64,000 bases of DNA, taken from an uncultured Gammaproteobacteria bacterium. Its GTDB lineage: Bacteria > Pseudomonadota > Gammaproteobacteria > CAWCPV01. The stretch's first letter is position 1. The number at the start of each line of letters is the position of its first letter. The position numbers were made by a program, and so were the translations under genes. The notes beneath the pieces are model-generated. The model was not told where the DNA came from and searched no databases. It worked only from the letters and a program-made list of their open reading frames with translations. Location: contig CAWCPV010000014.1 in the NCBI GenBank assembly GCA_963797555.1, positions 224,001-288,000 on the forward strand. Direction: 5' to 3'. Shown one piece after another: positions 1 through 12,530 of the stretch.

Positions 1-3
1 GCC

Positions 4-633
4 GTGGGCTACCTGCGCGCTTTCCAGCACCCCTCGTCCGAAGAGCGGCGGCGAGAGCGGCACGAGTTCCTCGCCGAGAAGGCGCTTTGGAATGCCTACC
101 GGTGCCAGAGTGACGCGGTGCTGCTCATCGACGAGATCGACAAGGCGCCGCGGGATTTCCCCAATGACCTGCTACAGGAGCTGGACCAGCACCGTTTCAA
201 GCACCCGTTCAAAGAGGAGTATGTCGAGCCGGCCAGCGGCCGCCCTCCGGTGGTGGTCATCACCAGCAACGCCGAGCGGCGCCTCCCGGACGCCTTCCTG
301 CGCCGCTGCATCGTGCACCACATCGAGCTGACGGAGGAATTGGTCGAGCGGGCCGTGCAGGCGAGGATGGGTGCGAAGGACAAGGACTTTCCCGTCGATC
401 TCGACGAGGACGTCCGGCGCGAAGCTCTCGGACGGTTCTGGGAGCTGCGGGACCCGGCCCACAACCTCCAGAAACGACCGTCCACGGGCGAGCTCCTGGT
501 CTGGCTGACCATCCTGAGCGCCCGCAGTGTCACTGCGGAGGAGCTGCGGGGCAAGGCGCTCGCGCACCTGCCCGGGATCGAGGCCCTGGTCAAGGACCGC
601 GACGACCTGAGGCAGCTCCGCAGCCCGGCGTGA
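4..633 (+). CDS. MoxR-family AAA+ ATPase (5' end outside window)
   Basis: Walker B VLLIDEIDKA, RDFPNDLL, VVITSNAERRLPDAFLRRC and KRPSTGELLVW motifs. Confidence 0.85.
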   Translation: MGYLRAFQHPSSEERRRERHEFLAEKALWNAYRCQSDAVLLIDEIDKAPRDFPNDLLQELDQHRFKHPFKEEYVEPASGRPPVVVITSNAERRLPDAFLRRCIVHHIELTEELVERAVQARMGAKDKDFPVDLDEDVRREALGRFWELRDPAHNLQKRPSTGELLVWLTILSARSVTAEELRGKALAHLPGIEALVKDRDDLRQLRSPA

Positions 634-2850
634 GCCAGCGCCAGGCCATGCCTGGAACGCGGAAGGCCACGGCAGTTTCTGCCCACGAGTCCGGGTCCGC
701 CCTCGCGGGCCTCGCCTCGCTCCCCGCCGACCTGGATGTCCTCCTGCACGCCCTGCGCGTCGAAAACATCCCGGTCGGCATCGGCGAGCTGACTTGGCTC
801 AATCACGCCTTCTCCCTCGGCCCTAGCCTGGACCGCGAGCAGCTCCGGGCTTTGCTGGCGTGCGCTCTGGTCAAGGACCCGCTCCGACGCCCCGACTTCG
901 ATGCTCTGTTCGACGACTGGTACCCGGAGATCCAGACCGGGCGCCCTGCGGCGGAGGAGGAACAGCTGGCGCAGGCAGGTGCACCCCCCGCGGGCAGCAA
1001 GGAAACGCAGGGCGGGGTCCGAGGCGGCCCCCCCGACGAGAAGGCTCCAACGGCACAGCAACCGCCGGAGTCGTGGCCCAGGCGGCTCGCCGCCGTCCTG
1101 TGGCGGCTGGCGGAGCTGGCCGGGGCGACCGCCGGCGCCACGCTGGCGCGAATCAGAAGCCTGGCGAGGCGCCGGGTGTTCTGGCTGAGCTTGGTTCTGA
1201 TGATCGAGCTGGTGGCCGCCGGTGTGTACCACTACCACTGCCCGAGCAGGCCCGGCCCCGTGACCCGCCCGCCGCAGCAAGAGCGCAAGCAGGGTCCGGC
1301 GCCAGCGCAAGGGCTTCGCACGGTGCGCGCCGCGCCGCCCCCTGGCGCAAAGCCCTTCGCGCCGGTGGACTCCGGTGCGCGCTGGGCCGGAGCCGGTCTG
1401 GGTCTGCTCGCCTTGACCCTGGCCGCCATTGCCGGTGGGCGCTACCGCCGCCAGCGGGCGTTGCCGGCGCCGGTCCCGGCGGTCGGGGGGCCGGCCTGGC
1501 TGCCGCGGCTGCCGCCGGAGGCGAGCGGACCCGAGCTGCTGGATGCGGAGCAGCTCCGCACCCTGGTCTGGGGGATCGGCCGCTTCGTGTCCGAGGACCT
1601 CACGGACCAGATCGATCCCGAGCGGACGGTCGCCGCGACCGCACGGGCGGGAGGGATGCCGGAGCTGCGTTATCGGCGAGCGGTCTATCCACGGGAGGTC
1701 TGGCTGTGGCAGGACCAGTCGGTCGAGGACCCGGGCGTCGAGCGGCTCGCCGACGAAGTGGAGGTCAGCCTGGAGCGGGCGGGATTGCCGGTGCGCCGGG
1801 GTTGGTTCGCCGACCTCCCGGAGGTGGTGCGCTGCGAGGAGCGGCGAGGAGCGGGCGGGCCGGCCGGTTTGGCCGCCGGCCATGCGGGTCGAGATTCTGG
1901 ACTGGCTGGCGCGGGCAGAGGCCCCGGGCGGGAGCGTGCCGGTGGCGGCGCAGAGCCTGCTCGGCCGGGCGCTCGCCTTCTGGCGGGGGCGCTGCCGGGA
2001 GGAGCGGTCGCGTCGGGAGAGGGCCGAGAGCCGGCTCCACCCCTTCCAGGGCACCGCGGCGGAGCAGCGGCTGCGCCTGGAAGAGGCGCTGCTCGATTTG
2101 TGGGCGCGTCCCGCCGAGGCCGCCATGGCGCTGTACGGGCTGTTCCGGGGCGCCTTCAGTGACGAGGTGGAGGCGCGCCTCGCCACCTATGCTCCACGGG
2201 ACTGGGGCCCGCGTCGGGGCCGGGTGCGGCTGCCCTGGCGCTGGTCGAGCCAGCCGGAGAAGGTCCGCTGGCTGTACGGGAAGATGGGCCTGGGTGGGGA
2301 GGGAGTCCTGGCGCAGCGCGGCGGCCTGCGCCCCTCGGCCACGCTGGGGGCGGCGCTGGGGCTGTGCCTCGGGCTCGTGGCGGCGGCCGGCACGGTCGCC
2401 CTGCGCCCGCCCGGCCTCGAGGAGTGGACCGACCCCGAGAGCGGCATTGCCTTCCTGCGCATCCCCGGCGGTCGCTTTCTGATGGGCTCGCCCGGGACCG
2501 CACTCCGAGGCCGACCCAGACGAGCGGCCACAGCACGAAGTCAGGCTCGGTCCCTTCTGGATGGCCCGCACCGAGACCACCAACGCCCAGTACCGGCGTC
2601 TGCACCCTGAGCACGAAGGTGCAGACGAGTCGCCGGCGGTCGGCGTCACCTGGGCCGAAGCCAAAGCGTTTTGCGAGCGGTTCGGCTTCTACCTGCCCAC
2701 CGAGGCCCAGTGGGAAGACGCCGCCCGAGCGGGGACCACCACCCGCTGGTCCTTCGGAGACGACCCGGCCGACCTCGGGTCTTATGCGTGGTACAGCGAA
2801 AACTCCGGCTCGCGAACCCATCCGGTGGGCACGAAGGCGCCCTCGAACAG
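630..2850 (+). pseudogene. MoxR-partner vWA-like membrane protein with C-terminal FGE-sulfatase (CLec-fold) domain; frameshifted (~1850, ~2500) and 3'-truncated
   Basis: GTGA overlap with moxR. ORFs 630..2162, 1429..2610 and 2561..3355 join up. FGE motifs FLRIPGGRFLMGS, TETTNAQY, LPTEAQWE and HPVGTKAP are present; GLYDMxGNVWEW and RGGSW are missing. Confidence 0.65.
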
Positions 2851-3009
2851 ATGGCGCGGCGTCTCGCCGGGATCAGACTACTGCCCCGGACGTGGCAGGC
2901 CGCCGAGTTCGTTGGAAACTGGGGTAACCCAGGACAACCGCAGCGCGGGGTACTGGAACGAAGGCGGCGCTCGCTGCGCGCCGCGGTGGAAGACAGCCTC
3001 GAATCTGGC

Positions 3010-3355
3010 TCCACAAGAGGAGCACGGACGACGCTACTCGGTGCGGGACCTCAAGGCCTTTCAGGTGGCGTTGCCGATCTATTGGGAGGCGAGCCAGGCG
3101 CTCGGGGAGGACCACGTGGCGACTCGTGCCCTGCGCCGCGTGCTCGAGCAGCTCGCCCGCGGGTGTCACCGCTTCGAGCGCACGCAGAAGGTCGAGGCTT
3201 ATGGTCAGGCCCGGGACGACGCCAGCCTGGCGGCCTGCGAGCTGCTGCTAACAGGGTCGCCCGTAGCCGAAAGCCTGATGGAGCGGGTCGAGCAAGAACT
3301 CATGCCGGCCTTCGCGGGCCTGATGCGGCGAGCCGACAGGCGCCGGGGTGTGTAG
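3010..3355 (+). CDS. Four-helix-bundle (23S-IVS/Avd-like) domain; start uncertain, possibly frameshifted from ~2851
   Basis: YSVRDLKAFQVALPIY resembles the FxDLxVWQxAxxL start of four-helix-bundle proteins; helical; ends 9 nt before avd. Confidence 0.4.
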
Positions 3356-3364
3356 GCCTCCTCG

Positions 3365-3700
3365 ATGGGCGACGAGCGCCGCGCCCCGCTGTTCACCGAT
3401 GCCTTCGCGCTGTGCGAGTGGCTGCTCGGGCATCTGGATGAGGAGCCGGGGGTCCTAGCGCCGGCATTGTGCCGCAATGCCCTTTCGCTGCTGGAGGCGA
3501 TCACCTTGGCGCTCAAGGGACAGTTGCGCGAGGAGCGACTGATCGAGGCGGACGAGCGGCTGGTGGCCCTGCGGGTACAGTTGCGTCTGGCGGCCGGCAC
3601 CGGCCGGCTCAGCGAGCGCCAGGCCCTGTACGCGCTGGAGATCGCGGACCGCATCGGCCGGCAGGTGGGGGGTTGGCGCCGGGCGCTGGAGCGGGCATGA
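3365..3700 (+). CDS. avd: DGR accessory variability determinant (Avd)
   Basis: 111 aa, helical, LRVQLRLA and RIGRQVGGW motifs, directly upstream of TR and RT. Confidence 0.85.
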   Translation: MGDERRAPLFTDAFALCEWLLGHLDEEPGVLAPALCRNALSLLEAITLALKGQLREERLIEADERLVALRVQLRLAAGTGRLSERQALYALEIADRIGRQVGGWRRALERA

Positions 3701-3732: not shown

Positions 3733-3861
3733 CAGGTGGACCGCGGGGGCTCCGCTTGGAACGACCCGAGGAATCTGCGCTCTGCGAACCGGGACAGGAA
3801 CGACCCCGAGAACCGGAACGACAACCAGGGGTTCCGTTGCGTGCGTGTTCCGGGCCGCCAA
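3733..3861 (+). repeat. DGR template repeat (TR), 129 nt
   Basis: Gap-free alignment to the reverse complement of 5121..5249; 15 mismatches, all at TR adenines; AAC-rich. Confidence 0.95.
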
Positions 3862-5000: not shown

Positions 5001-5046
5001 ACGCGGTCGCCCGCGAGTGTCCACCTCGTGACACGCCGTGTCCTTT

Positions 5047-5093
5047 TGTCACTTCAGTGACAGGGGCGCACGGGCGGCGCTTCGCGCCGCCCG
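5047..5093 (-). promoter_or_regulatory. Hairpins downstream of VR (candidate DGR homing hairpin)
   Basis: 10-bp stem CGGGCGGCGC/GCGCCGCCCG (5071..5093) with a GAA loop on the target strand; second 6-bp stem TGTCAC/GTGACA (5047..5062). Confidence 0.7.
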
Positions 5094-5114
5094 AGAAAAC
5101 AAGGGGTCAAGCGG

Positions 5115-6156
5115 TCAAGACTGGCGGCCCGGAACACGCACGCAACGGAACCCCCGGTCGACGTACCGGTTCTCGGGGTCGACCCTGGCCCGGAGCGCAG
5201 AGCGCAGATACCTCGGGGCGTCCCAAGCGGAGCCCCCGCGGCCCACCCGACGAAGGCCGATGGCCGGCCCTGCCGGGTTGTCGGCTTGGCCGAATCCGTA
5301 TCTTCCGTAATAGTCCCAGCACCACTCCCACACGTTGCCCAGCATGTCGTACAGCCCCCAGGGGTTGGGCTCCTTTTCCGCTACCGGGTGGACTCTGCTG
5401 CCCGAATTACCCTCGAACCAGGCGTAGTCTCCCAGCTCGCGCTCGTCATCGCCGAAGAACCAGCGGGCGGTAGCCCCGGCCCGGACCGCGTACTCCCACT
5501 CCGCCTCGGTGGGCAGGCGGTAGCCGTTGGCGGTGCGGTCCCAGCGCCAGCGCGTGAGCACCTTACGGTAGCAGGGCCTGAGACCCAGCCGCTCGGAGAG
5601 GCGGTTGCAGAACCGCACGGCGTCGCCCCAGCTCACGTAGCTGGCGGGAAGCTCGCCGTCTTGCGGGTCGCTGTCCCACTCGGGCCGATTCTGCGGCCAT
5701 GACTTCCCGGTACAGCGCCCGGGTCACCGGCGTCTGGCCCATGAGGAAGCCGGCGACCCGGACCAGGTGCTGGGGCCGCTCGTCCTCGACTGCGGACTGG
5801 TCATCATCGGCGCTGCCCATCCGAAACTCGCCGGCCGGCAGCGCCACCATCGTCAGCAGCCCGGGGATGTCCTCCACCGCCGAGAAGGGGAGGGGCTGCG
5901 GAGGCGGCTCGGGGACGGGCTCGGGTACCGGTGCGACCACCGCCCGCCCGAGGAACGCGAGGGGTGCCGCCACGGCGAGGGCCGCGAACCCGAGCGCGAG
6001 CCCCGGAGCACCGCCCGGCTGAAAGAGGGCGAGCCAACCGGCGAGCGTTCCGAGGAGCGCCCCGACCGCGAGCCCCCAGAGGAAACCGACCTCTTCGAGC
6101 GCTCTCCACGCCTTACGGAGACGGGATGGCGCCGACGCTGCCAGGGTGCTTTTCAC
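5115..6156 (-). CDS. DGR target: membrane-anchored FGE-sulfatase/CLec-fold protein (one frameshift ~5690)
   Basis: Two hydrophobic segments, Pro-rich linker, GEFRMGS, LPTEAEWEY, NPWGLYDMLGNVWEWC, RGGSAW, GFRCVR; split over ORFs 5563..6156 and 5115..5636. Confidence 0.85.
5121..5249 (-). repeat. DGR variable repeat (VR)
   Basis: Encodes RVGRGGSAWDAPRYLRSALRARVDPENRYVDRGFRCVRVPGRQ at the target C-terminus; differs from TR only at adenines. Confidence 0.95.
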
Positions 6157-6215: not shown

Positions 6216-7059
6216 TCAGCCACTGCGGGCATGCTCATACTTCTTCAGCAGGTAGCGGGCGATCCCGGCGCCGGCCGCGTTGTGAGAGGCGAAGAACAGA
6301 TAGTAGATGGTCGCATTCCTGCGATTGCGCATCGGGATCGGTTCCGGCACCTCATTGAAGCCGGCCACCTCCTGCAGCCGCTTGCGGAAAGCACTGGCAA
6401 CCTGCCGGTTGCCGGCGGTCTTGATCAGCTCTTCCTCCCCGAACAGGGTTCTCTGGGGTGTATAGACGATGTTACGCCAGGAATCGTCGCCCCAGAATCG
6501 GGTCATCCGCTGCAGGTCCGCAGCATCTACGCCAGCCGGATTCAGCCACAAGGCATTCCGGTTGATATCCATGATCGGAAAGTTCAGGAACTAGCTCGAC
6601 GCTGCGCATCTTGGCGGCATGAGCGAGCACCTCCCAGCTCACGCTGAGGCCATAAGGATCGAGCAGGCACAGACCACGCTTGTAGTCCTCATATCTGACC
6701 TTGGGAAACACTTGGTCCAGCAGAACACGATTGCAGTCCCCCTCGTAGATGAACACCTCGGGGCGGTCCCCCACCAGCTCCCGAAGGTTCGCGATCTTGG
6801 CTCCGTCCAGGTCGATCAGATGCAGCTCCCGGAACGGAGGCTCCACGGCCAGGGCGTTCAGCGGACTACCCGGCACCAGTTCTCGCGTAGTCTTGGAGAG
6901 GTGGATGCCGGCCCCTGCGAAGGCGTCCACGTAGACATGCTGAAGCCGCGGCTGCCGCGCGAGAATCGTGGAATATGCCTTGGCATACTCGCTCACGATA
7001 GTCAGCTTGACCTCGGACCAGTAGTCGATCTCGTCGAACCGCAGAGGCGCGGAGCCCAT
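6216..7059 (-). CDS. Three-Cys-motif partner protein (TcmP-like, methyltransferase-like); frameshift ~6590
   Basis: WSEVKL..Y, YVDAFAGAG, GSPL, LLDPYG, YYLFFAS motifs; divergent from a Gp37/Gp68 gene. Confidence 0.75.
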
Positions 7060-7148
7060 GCGTCTCCCTCCCGTTGGTTTCTTTCTGAGGCCGGGATTGA
7101 CTCCCGCACAGAAGGGTACTATACGGGAGTACAAAAGGAGAACAATGG

Positions 7149-7901
7149 ATGAGCGAGCGAAGCTCCATCGAGTGGACCGACGCCACCTGGAATCCCGTTC
7201 GGGGCTGCACCAAGATATCCCCCGGGTGCAAGCACTGTTACGCCGAGACCTTTGCCGACCGGTTCCGTGGTGTCCCGGGGCACCCGTTTGAGCAGGGCTT
7301 CGACCTCCGCCTGGTGCCCGAGGTACTCCATCTTCCGCTGAAGTGGAAGCGGGGACGCCTGATCTTCGTGAACAGCATGTCGGACCTGTTTCATGATCGC
7401 GTCCCGGACGACTACATCGGGCGAGTCTTTGGCGTTATGTGCGCGGCGCCGCAGCATCAGTTTCAGATTCTGACCAAGCGGGCCGAGCGGCTGGCCGCGT
7501 TTACCCGTACCGAAGCAGTGCCATCGAATGCTTGGATTGGCGTGAGCGTCGAGAACGCTGATTACAAGTGGCGCATCGCCTACCTTCGACAAGTCGACAC
7601 ACGGGTGCGTTTCTTGAGTATCGAGCCCTTGTTGGGCCCGGTCGGTGAACTGGATCTCGCTGGTATCGCCTGAGTAATCGTGGGCGGCGAGAGCGGCCGA
7701 CGCGCGCGGCCTGTCGAGGCGGAGTGGGTGCGGGACGTTAGGGAGCAGTGCTTAAACGCCGGTCTGCCGTTCTTTTTCAAGCAATGGGGTGGCCGACGCA
7801 AGGCGCGTGCCGGACGAGAGCTCGATGGTCGTACCTGGAACCAAATGCCCCTCGGCGTCCCCGTTCATCGTTCCTCAGCCCTCTTCGACTCGTGCAGCTA
7901 G
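7149..7901 (+). CDS. Phage Gp37/Gp68 (DUF5131) family three-Cys protein; in-frame TGA at 7671..7673
   Basis: [48 protein letters not shown]; TGA replaces the W of WVIVGGESG; FFFKQWGG. Confidence 0.85.
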
Positions 7902-8166
7902 TCCCCCACCCACGAGATAAAATCGGGATGCTAAACTTATTTCTCAATAGGTTGAGGCAACCTGTTGAGGAGGATAGTGATGAAGAAGCGCTATATCGTG
8001 CAGTTGTCCGCCGAAGAGCGTGATCGGCTGGAAGGTTGGGTGAATCGGGGGCGGGAGGCGCCTATCTATAGAGCGACAATTACGTTGACCGGTTGGCGAC
8101 AACTACTTTGTCCGGTTGATCGGCCACACTGGCGGCGTTCTGACATCCGATGCTTCGGGGGGAGGG

Positions 8167-9696
8167 ATGGCCGTCACACCGCAACAGGTCAAGGTCTATA
8201 TGTCACAGAGAACCGCAGGTAAGAACCAAGTAACCGCCGCCGCCAAGGCGGGTTTCTCGGAGCGCACGGCGCGCCGTCTTGACGAGCGGGACGAGCGTCG
8301 AGCACCGCGGGGCGCGCGGCGGTATCGAACGCGCCGCGACCCCTTTGACACCGTGTGGGACAGCGAGCTGGTCCCACTGCTTGAGCACACCCCGGCACTG
8401 CACGCGCTGACGCTCTTGGAAGGGCTCCAGGAGCGCCATCCGGGCCAGTACCCGGACAAGCTATTGCGCACCTTGCAGCGCCGGGTGAAGGCCTGGCGGG
8501 CGGCGCATGGACCCGAGAAGGAGGTGATGTTCCCACAGCAGCAGGTCCCGGGACTGCGGGGTTTGTCGGATTTCACCGTGCTCAAGGACGTCACCGTCAC
8601 CATCGCCGGCGAGCCGCTCGCCCACCGCCTCTACCATTTCCGCCTGGCCTACAGCGGCTGGTGCACGGTGCGGGTGGTGCTGGGCGGGGAGAGCTTCACG
8701 GCGCTCGCCGAGGGGCTCAGCCAGGCGCTGCTGCGCCTGGGCGGTGCACCGGCCGAGCACCGCACTGACAGCCTCTCGGCGGCGTTCAAGAACCTCTCGG
8801 CTGAGGCCCAGCACGACCTTGCGGCGCGCTACGCGGCGCTCTGCGCCCATTATGGGATGAGGCCGACGCGCAACAACCCCGGGGCCTGCCACGAGAACGG
8901 CAGCATCGAGTCACCCCACGGGCATTTGAAGCGCCGTATCGTGCAGCGCCTTCTGGCCCGGGGCAGTGCCGAGTTCCCCTCGGTGGCGTCCTACCAGGAC
9001 TTTCTCGACACCGTCACCGCCGCCGTCAACCGGCGTAACGCCACCGCCATCGAGGCCGAGCGCCCCCATCTGCGGCCCCTGCCGGTGACCTTCGCGGCCG
9101 ACTACACCGAGCTGTGGGTGAAGGTCACCACCGCCAGCACCATCACCGTGCGCTTGGTGGTCTACTCGGTCCCCGCGCGGCTCATCGGCGAGCGCCTGCG
9201 GGTGCACCTCTATGACGCCCGCCTGGAGCTGTTCCTCGGCACCGAGGCCCTGCTCATCCTCCCGCGGGTCTACCCGGCCCCGGGCAAGCGCCGGGCGAGC
9301 CGCATCGACTATCGCCATCTCGTGGGATGGCTGGTGAAGAAGCCCCGCGCCTTCTATCGGCTCCAGTACCGCGACGCCCTGCTTCCGGATGCCACCTATC
9401 AGCGTATCTGGCAGCATCTGGACGCTACCCTTGCGCCCGCCGACGCCTGCAAGCGCATGGTCGGCGCACTCAAGCTCGCCGCCGAGCACGAGTGCCAGGA
9501 GGCCCTGGGGACCCACTGGCTGGCCGCCCTGGAGCGAGGCCTATCGCCCACGCTCAGCGCCCTGCAACAACGCTTCGCACCGCCAGCCCCCGCGACGCTC
9601 CCTCTCGGCGCCACTGCTCAGCACCCGCTGGCCGACTATGACGCGCTCCTGCCCGCCACCCACCGCAGTGCCGCCGAGGAGGTGTGCCATGGCTAA
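8167..9696 (+). CDS. istA: IS21 transposase IstA
   Basis: N-terminal HTH, SDFT, HRTDSLSAA, HENGSIES integrase-core motifs. Confidence 0.9.
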   Translation: MAVTPQQVKVYMSQRTAGKNQVTAAAKAGFSERTARRLDERDERRAPRGARRYRTRRDPFDTVWDSELVPLLEHTPALHALTLLEGLQERHPGQYPDKLLRTLQRRVKAWRAAHGPEKEVMFPQQQVPGLRGLSDFTVLKDVTVTIAGEPLAHRLYHFRLAYSGWCTVRVVLGGESFTALAEGLSQALLRLGGAPAEHRTDSLSAAFKNLSAEAQHDLAARYAALCAHYGMRPTRNNPGACHENGSIESPHGHLKRRIVQRLLARGSAEFPSVASYQDFLDTVTAAVNRRNATAIEAERPHLRPLPVTFAADYTELWVKVTTASTITVRLVVYSVPARLIGERLRVHLYDARLELFLGTEALLILPRVYPAPGKRRASRIDYRHLVGWLVKKPRAFYRLQYRDALLPDATYQRIWQHLDATLAPADACKRMVGALKLAAEHECQEALGTHWLAALERGLSPTLSALQQRFAPPAPATLPLGATAQHPLADYDALLPATHRSAAEEVCHG

Positions 9697-10453
9697 CGCC
9701 GCCACCTTGCCCCTGCTGCTCAGGGAGCTGCGCCTGCCGACCATGGCACGGCTGTATCAACCGCTGCAAACCCGGGCCCTCGAGCACCACTGGAGCCTCG
9801 CCGACTATCTCGCCGCGCTCTGCGAGCACGAGCTCGCCGAACGCGAGCGGCGGCGCCTGGAGCGCCACCTCAACGATGCCCGCCTGCCCGCGGGCAAGAC
9901 GCTCCAGCACTTCGACTTCACGGCCAGCGCCGGGCTGAACCGCCAGCAGATCGTGCAGCTCGCCGAGGATGCCACCTGGGTCGAGCGCACCGACAACCTC
10001 CTGCTCTTCGGGCCCTCCGGCGTCGGCAAAACCCATCTCGCCGCAGCCATTGGGCACGGGCTCATCAGCCAAGGGGTGCGGGTGCGTTTCGCCTCGGCAA
10101 CCAGCCTCGTCCAGGAGCTTCAAACCGCCAAACAGGCCCTCAGGCTCAGCGATGCGCTCGCCAAGCTCGACAAGTACCCGCTGCTCGTCCTCGATGACAT
10201 CGGCTACGTCAAGCGCACCGAGATGGAAAGCTCCGTGCTCTTCGAGCTCATCGCCCACCGCTACGAGAGCGGCAGTCTCCTGATCACCAGCAACCACCCC
10301 TTCAGCGAGTGGGATGCGATCTTCCCCGACAACATGATGGCCGTCGCCGCCATCGACCGGCTCGTCCACCATGCCCACATCATCGAGCTCAACGGGCAGA
10401 GCTACCGAAAGCGCCAAGCAACCCGCAACCAGGAGGTATCGAACAAGAGCTGA
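9689..10453 (+). CDS. istB: IS21 helper ATPase IstB
   Basis: GPSGVGKTHLA, LLVLDDIGY, AAIDRLVHH. Confidence 0.92.
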   Translation: MANAATLPLLLRELRLPTMARLYQPLQTRALEHHWSLADYLAALCEHELAERERRRLERHLNDARLPAGKTLQHFDFTASAGLNRQQIVQLAEDATWVERTDNLLLFGPSGVGKTHLAAAIGHGLISQGVRVRFASATSLVQELQTAKQALRLSDALAKLDKYPLLVLDDIGYVKRTEMESSVLFELIAHRYESGSLLITSNHPFSEWDAIFPDNMMAVAAIDRLVHHAHIIELNGQSYRKRQATRNQEVSNKS

Positions 10454-10716
10454 CGACAACTACCGCCTACACTACAGAGCGGCCATTCTAGTTGTCGTCA
10501 ACCGGACAGAGTAATTGACGTTCAGACACCTATCGCCGGCGACATGCGCAAGTCCTATGGTGGGTGGACGAAGGCGAACGCGGCAGCGGTCTGATAGACC
10601 GTGAAGCGGCCGAACGGGTGGGGTGTACCCGAGGAACGGTGGAACAGATTCGGGAACGGTGTGTCCGTGAAGGTTTGCAAGCGGCGCTTGAGCGGGGGAT
10701 CCTCTCGCGCCCGGAG

Positions 10717-11407: not shown

Positions 11408-12362
<955 letters not shown>

Positions 12363-12530
12363 GGCTCTGGCTCCCAACCTTGCAGATACGGGCTCACTGA
12401 CCCAGGCAACCGTTCGGGTTACTCAGAGATGATGGACCTGACGACCCAAGCTCTCCCACGGTGTTTCCCACCCAGGGCAAGGACGATCTGCCAGGTCCTG
12501 AACCTCTCTCACTTTAAATCTCCACTATCC
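12363..12530 (-). ncRNA. Putative IS110 bridge RNA
   Basis: Contains segments matching the target (CCTTGCCCT, GGGAGAG) and the donor (ACGGTTGC, TGCAAG) in IS621-like order. Confidence 0.75.

Follow-up and report, generated by a model that had tools for sequence, protein, structure and literature searches.

The first genes of the stretch of DNA analysed here (the window; 64,000 nucleotides, C14:224001-288000 of the assembly of an uncultured gammaproteobacterium) raise the question whether a gene coupled to a MoxR-type ATPase, which runs into a DGR and carries the same type of C-terminal domain as the target of that DGR, is a second target from which the variable repeat (VR) has disappeared, and whether it disappeared in the organism or in the assembly. 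The gene at 630-2845 is very probably the broken long, MoxR-coupled target of a two-target DGR, and its intact form is likely a hypervariable sensor that spans the membrane and belongs to a conflict system of the iSTAND type.

Source genome and comparative set

The source genome (5.35 Mb in 20 contigs, 84.6% complete) carries five DGR-type reverse transcriptase (RT) loci with six template repeats (TRs), and three of its other DGRs likewise have two local targets each. The closest available genomes share only the rank of class with it, and no syntenic copy of the locus was found among the 40 nearest genomes (same class at best). Relatives were collected by a scan that returned 53 loci, 52 of which contain a long-target gene (L047 was dropped for want of homology), and 10 further regions were fetched via the HTH gene of the DGR core. 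L098 was excluded from the counts on account of its different target N-termini, and a weak repeat in L039 was not taken as a TR.

Organization of the locus and breaks in the long target

The genes of the locus follow each other in the order TIR-CHAT-like-iSTAND, MoxR, long target, core (HTH, avd, TR, RT), and convergent short target (Table 1). Inspection of the region upstream of the window, as had been recommended earlier, revealed the start of the MoxR-type ATPase gene and the TIR-CHAT-like-iSTAND gene.

Table 1. Features of the locus (window coordinates unless indicated otherwise)
Feature	Position	Strand	Remarks
TIR-CHAT-like-iSTAND gene	L001:15270-17638 = window -2730 to -362		two +1 frameshifts; TIR by Pfam
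MoxR-type AAA+ ATPase, intact 318 aa, 3' part in window	1..633	+	start upstream at L001:17677; Pfam AAA_5 E 4.8e-11, over cut-off
Long target piece 1	630..1835	+	N-terminal helical domain, membrane segment(s), first half of vWA-like domain; first conserved Asp 1713-1715
Junction duplication	1834..1854	+	10-nt tandem duplication (copies 1834-1844 and 1844-1854; 11-nt repeat) at ~150-codon deletion
Long target piece 2	1846..2499	+	helical linker, membrane segment 2344-2400 (hydropathy), CLec start; 69% identical to P0001 554-771
Long target piece 3	2501..2841	+	after +1 frameshift; CLec/FGE to GTKA(P); PF03781 positions 21-173 of 255
HTH_17 + helical-domain gene remnant, first gene of DGR core	2842..3355	+	2842-2935 degraded, +1 at ~3002, 3002-3346 intact
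Avd accessory protein, intact	3365..3700	+	PF22296 (bAvd) E 2.7e-9, NF033474 (DivGenRetAVD) E 9.1e-10, both below curated cut-off
Template repeat (TR)	3735..3860	+	126 nt, 24 adenines
DGR reverse transcriptase, intact 330 aa	4008..5000	+	RVT_1 over cut-off; RTs in relative cassettes 52-68% identical
TGTCA-N6-TGACA palindrome, operator-like box at core end	5047..5062	.	sequence; enrichment in relatives
GC-rich hairpin downstream of VR2	5071..5093	-	10-bp stem, 3-nt loop; DNA fold of 5030-5125
VR2, variable repeat of short target	5122..5247	-	TR-VR comparison
Short convergent target, membrane segments + CLec/FGE	5115..6156	-	+1 frameshift ~5698; PF03781; hydropathy

Gene 630-2845 is split over three frames, its CLec piece lying in frame 2489-2845, and it contains three breaks: a deletion of ~150 codons at ~1835, a +1 frameshift at ~2500, and a deletion of ~0.4-0.5 kb at ~2842. 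The second of these, as well as the nature of the sequence after 2842, which is the remnant of a separate HTH gene, had been missed by the sequence-only reading. For sizing of the deletions 14 longer homologues (722-1165 aa) were used, 13 of which have a C-terminal FGE domain.

At the first deletion the alignment jumps from residue 406 (end of piece 1) to 554 (start of piece 2) of P0001 and from 346 to 501 of P0003; measured on P0001, ~147 codons are absent, and with them the remainder of the vWA-like domain with its second conserved Asp. A break at 1835-1855 next to a short direct repeat had been noted before; the repeat is there, but the break is a deletion of ~147-154 codons and not a frame break alone. 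When the gene was codon-shuffled, 20 of 300 copies contained at least one such tandem 10-mer, as did 14 of 130 genomic samples of 2.2 kb, and with a chance frequency of 7-11% the repeat by itself is unremarkable, its significance lying in its place at the junction. Deletion between direct repeats leaves one copy. As two copies remain here, the repeat does not flank a repeat-mediated deletion of the classical form, which was rejected, and is better described as a junction duplication of either biological or assembly-born origin.

The second large deletion amounts to 382-484 nt, as judged from the GTKA-to-HTH spacing in seven of the eight same-orientation relatives tested; at the present locus this spacing is approximately zero. 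The homologue match of the CLec domain stops right after GTKAP at 2845, in agreement with the earlier observation that the VR-bearing end is absent from the assembled copy, and the last ~85 codons including the VR are lacking. Also lost are the hairpin, the intergenic stretch and the beginning of the HTH gene, so that the long gene is fused to the HTH gene. The HTH remnant is 76% identical to P0189 residues 70-184 and 48% identical to residues 29-70, and its intact homologues match PF12728; because a 12-residue match at 2842-2877 does not exceed shuffled sequences, the junction could be placed only within 2836-2895. The HTH-helical family gave 399 hits, and within the class the gene matched two of 400 genomes, one being the source genome. 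A second Avd in the C-domain of this protein was considered and rejected (hhalign probability 0.07, no PDB sequence hit). No copy of the missing vWA half or of the missing VR was found elsewhere in the source genome assembly (84.6% complete).

P0001, the closest homologue, likewise ends just past the same CLec position, in an unrelated-looking tail.

Variable repeats at the target tips of related loci

Over its 126 nt the TR differs from VR2 at 13 positions, all of which are TR adenines, and it has no other match in the window or in the source genome assembly, so that no VR is present in the assembled long gene and the short target alone stays mutable in the locus as assembled. Both targets contain the FGE peptides on which their proposed paralogy was based, and both match PF03781; "closely paralogous" was generous, since the DNA similarity is 79% over only 82 nt, and the CLec domain of the short target has an insert of ~24 residues that is absent from that of the long target.

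The 52 loci comprised seven with an intact TR and both targets, five with a partly deleted core, one with a core cut by the contig end, 19 with both targets and no core (two being duplicates), and 20 that were cut short or otherwise arranged. Six of the ten regions fetched via the HTH gene add intact cases, bringing these to 13. In every one of the 13 the long gene has a VR at its end, and a single TR corresponds to the tips of both targets, TR adenines accounting for 193 of the 204 and 214 of the 225 mismatches, which bears out the earlier proposal that one TR served two receptors. Moreover, 67 of 84 full-length homologues finish with the CLec C-terminal motif. That the long gene never was a DGR target and its CLec is an unrelated paralogue is hardly credible, as the lack of a VR in the assembled gene and its slight DNA identity to the short target are outweighed by the VR in all 13 intact relatives and by a deletion that also takes the start of the next gene.

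Some related loci deviate from this arrangement. L072 contains a different cassette (RT 37%), and its TR also matches the L072 long target. L098 (G045:C5) has a related HTH-avd-TR-RT core and two convergent targets with different N-termini, and lacks MoxR; therefore, the core moves between systems. Among the 81-94% identical loci L065-L071, the core is found in L068 and is replaced by ~40-nt tandem repeats elsewhere.

Genuine loss versus assembly artefact

All five frameshifts that were sized against homologues are +1, and a control of 54 conserved genes (76 kb) yielded three to four frameshifts, the three clear ones again all being +1; furthermore, three VRs elsewhere in the source genome carry a 1-nt insertion. 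This uniform pattern suggests insertion-biased sequencing error, and the single-base breaks are likely sequencing errors. Their density at the locus (five to six in 10.4 kb) is over tenfold that of the control, which fits low coverage and real decay equally.

For both deletions the odds of being real are about even. An assembly explanation, in which the organism has an intact locus and the two ~0.44-kb deletions arose only in the consensus of a long-read assembly of low coverage, falls just short of an even chance. Besides the consistent +1 breaks and the VR insertions, it is favoured by the garbled sequence at 2842-2935 beside a 76%-identical C-domain, by the 10-nt duplication at the first junction, and by the fact that TR and VR2 differ at no non-adenine site. 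The latter gives no sign of long decay and thus favours either an artefact or a very recent loss. Conversely, the 54 control genes showed a single large internal gap, in a distant homologue, and partial core deletions are found in eight other assemblies (L035, L043, L049, L050, L054, L058, L101, and L103), while the 19 of 52 loci that retain both targets without a core also speak for genuine loss. Deletion variants in long reads appear in the available text of Dore 2024 (PMC10907252), and substitutions occur at the locus too, such as D in place of Y in the EYAARAG motif and a TGA within the DUF5131 gene.

Predicted proteins and mode of action

The ATPase ending at 633, which we take to be of the MoxR type from its context and a sequence motif, has homologues at the same position in relative loci that are 43-81% identical. 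The domain structure of the long target was derived from a full-length AlphaFold model of P0003 (pLDDT 86), in which N-terminal helices and two long hydrophobic helices are followed by an alpha/beta domain, a helical linker, a third hydrophobic helix, and the CLec domain. The alpha/beta domain has alternating strands and helices with Asp304 and Asp369 at strand ends, and it fits the vWA definition in the available text of PMC7159879; the Asp pair is conserved in 83 and 78 of 84 sequences, respectively. The Atlas lead (0.90) points to a cluster with 11% VWA_CoxE. No Pfam, NCBIfam, PDB-sequence or fold-search hit was obtained for this part with full-length queries, for which the fold lists were filled by CLec, and the DxSxS serines are lacking. 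The model topology, the two Asp residues and the Atlas lead support the earlier suggestion that the N-terminal region is vWA-like. In 58 of 84 homologues the vWA part is predicted to be preceded by one or two membrane segments and followed by a single one, and the CLec domain of the P0003 model has the DGR target TvpA as its nearest match (Z 31.2), level with PvdO.

The third component was modelled on its homologue in L034 (39% identical to the local gene; pLDDT 87). This model matches TIR (Z 16), CHAT/separase (Z 17), and ORC/Cdc6, with Atlas features of 0.96 (iSTAND in 41% of that cluster) and a TM of 0.75 to iSTAND. Walker A lacks the Lys in 23 of 23 aligned homologues, and the CHAT protease dyad is missing in the local gene and in most of these 23; a His-Cys-like dyad is kept in the CHAT domain of L043, L080, L081, and L083. 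In relatives the N-terminal TIR is swapped for a caspase domain or an EAD7-like domain. Pfam iSTAND (PF19995) gave no hit at the locus or in the 23 aligned homologues, and the VMAP Pfam gave none in these homologues, the C-terminal part being STAND-like. Despite the lack of a Pfam iSTAND score, the third component is predicted from the model to act like an iSTAND component. With a TIR-CHAT-like-iSTAND gene upstream, the locus is read as an iSTAND ternary system joined to a two-target DGR; the ternary type had been recognized by the sequence-only reading, and its subtype is iSTAND, not VMAP.

In the mechanism that we propose, RT and Avd would rewrite both CLec tips at adenines by retrohoming (following PMC10907252). 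The CLec domain of the long receptor would face outward and bind a ligand outside the cytoplasm, the binding signal would pass through the membrane to the vWA domain in the cytoplasm, and MoxR would remodel the vWA domain and the iSTAND scaffold, which would then gather TIR domains. Clustered TIR domains cleave NAD+, and this cleavage would lead to arrest or death of the cell.

The opposite logic, with the iSTAND protein as detector of the invader and the vWA-CLec protein as an effector or decoy that is released, is rather unlikely. It was put forward by Kaur et al., and in the available text of PMC7159879 and PMC8195603 the third component is preferred as sensor; the His-Cys-like dyad retained in four relatives agrees with it. 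The hypervariable surface lies on the CLec domain, beyond the membrane segment by hydropathy, which argues for the long target as sensor, and proteolytic release is unlikely in this clade, since neither the local gene nor most of the 23 aligned homologues have the dyad. An immune-like role of the locus may be surmised from the literature on such systems.

Orientation of the core and repeats at its ends

The HTH-avd-TR-RT core runs in the same direction as the long target in 16 loci and in the opposite direction in seven. Quick tree searches (23 and 16 rows) placed three orientation changes on the long-target tree, two of which are forced by strong branches, and two on the RT tree, one of which is forced. 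On both trees loci of like orientation cluster (3-4 of 500 shuffles gave as low a count of changes), indicating that flips are rare and do not represent phase variation, so that rapid phase variation was rejected. A shufflon or other site-specific invertible system was likewise discarded, since switching is not rapid and no tyrosine recombinase was found within 40 kb in any of the five genomes checked.

Comparison of L054 with L034 located the switch point inside the VR-to-hairpin inverted repeat, and such repeats contain identical runs of 32-62 nt. The 50 nt 3' of the VR show 76% similarity inside a locus as against 43% when loci are compared, and the two CLec genes of L035, L042, and L051 share 77-81% over 620-870 nt. 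The VR ends at the two sides of the core are thus inverted repeats of each other, and it is likely that the host on rare occasions recombines them, whereby the core is inverted and the tips of the receptors are exchanged. That the two orientations arose by separate insertions of a mobile core, or by misassembly at the repeats, is improbable. The many loci without a core and the preponderance of short-read assemblies among the contigs would fit these explanations, as would the terminal boxes described below, which we take to resemble transposon ends. Nevertheless, the switch point falls inside the VR-to-hairpin repeat, core-less loci hold varied tandem repeats and no clean empty site, independent assemblies of close kin agree on orientation (L034/L052 and L083/L097), and the absence of nearby tyrosine recombinases in the five genomes checked also counts against them.

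The fold of 5030-5125, which contains the hairpin, has a z of -3.2, and 0 of 200 shuffles were as stable. In 27 core ends TGACA/TGTCA words were found 95 times versus 9.3 in shuffles (maximum 18), mostly as TGTCA-N6-TGACA, and such boxes occur at both ends of the core. These words are absent after nine VRs of the other DGRs of the source genome, and core-less loci contain nine in 6.7 kb. Their co-occurrence with the HTH gene suggests that the HTH protein may bind the boxes. A more elaborate proposal, which we regard as unlikely in its full form, is that the HTH_17-helical protein is a DGR accessory factor that would act on the box arrays by both hairpins, gate retrohoming and pair the ends, while a VR-VR crossover would flip the core and exchange tips (in some loci whole CLec domains) between the MoxR-wired sensor and the free membrane receptor. 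If true, hypermutation and shufflon-like exchange would be combined in one immune locus.

Neighbouring and remote loci

Beyond the short target in the window, a divergent gene pair (6216-7673) consists of a minus-strand gene without Pfam hit (frameshift ~6595), which presumably resembles three-Cys-motif partner proteins, and a DUF5131 gene that is interrupted by a TGA (7671-7673). An element with terminal inverted repeats and two open frames (8071-10523) is taken to be IS21-like, and 11408-12377 is assumed to be a frameshifted IS110-like transposase. Elsewhere in the genome, a second MoxR locus (G000:C3:802500-810700), which has no adjoining RT, combines a trypsin-like gene and a small gene of adaptor-like type with a vWA-like protein, after which three FGE domains lie in tandem. 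Two remote FGE genes show adenine-biased similarity to a TR and are possible old remote targets: G000:C5:111981-112111 (TR at C4:520k; 17 of 25 mismatches) and C2:191377-191506 (TR at C3:47k; 17 of 32 mismatches).

Relation to known systems and significance

In the available text of Kaur 2020 (PMC7159879), iSTAND ternary systems share with this locus a TIR or caspase-like domain fused to an inactive STAND, plus MoxR, and a vWA protein with an N-terminal helical domain and membrane segments, FGS being the commonest effector. Here, unlike there, TIR and a mostly inactive CHAT fold together precede iSTAND, and neither iSTAND nor vWA scores in Pfam; as to DGR linkage, the same text mentions it for VMAP systems and not for those of the iSTAND type. 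Clade 5A DGRs, such as DGR 8 of Thiohalocapsa PB-PSB1 (Dore 2024, PMC10907252), agree by layout, with MoxR directly upstream of the long target, a second short CLec target, and an HTH gene, as well as in adjoining TIR or caspase genes, several DGRs per genome, and degraded loci with MITE-like repeats instead of a core. In the available text of that source the long N-terminus is without predicted domain and the HTH gene replaces VMAP, whereas here a vWA-like domain is predicted, a separate iSTAND gene is present, and HTH opens the core; in its SI Fig. S4, long reads reveal inversion variants at DGR 7, for which that text gives no mechanism. Avd-TR-RT order, adenine-specific TR-VR differences and a GC-rich hairpin after the VR are shared with the Bordetella BPP-1 type DGR (architecture B; Wu 2018, PMC5758913), from which the locus differs, on the available text, by convergent targets flanking the core and by the added HTH_17 gene and palindromic boxes. 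The same source reports two targets in 13% of DGRs, and its main text has no occurrence of "HTH" or "recombination".

MoxR-vWA-FGS systems with DGRs are already in the available text of PMC7159879, and the two-target MoxR-HTH layout and inversion variants at one locus in that of PMC10907252. Features not found in print are the core in either orientation, with at least two flips, and the TGTCA-N6-TGACA boxes at both ends; neither operator boxes nor VR-VR inversion in DGRs were found in the literature searched, and SI Fig. S11 of PMC10907252 (clade 5A maps) may show both orientations.

The broken copy itself adds little, and it is the family that gives predicted vWA-like, iSTAND and inactive CHAT domains to a DGR layout published without them. 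To our knowledge, the control of DGR activity in cells is little understood, and the family supplies a candidate regulator and operator for it. Finally, compact intact loci such as L040, L042, and L100 may serve as test beds for DGR-diversified lectins that would trigger TIR-based defence.
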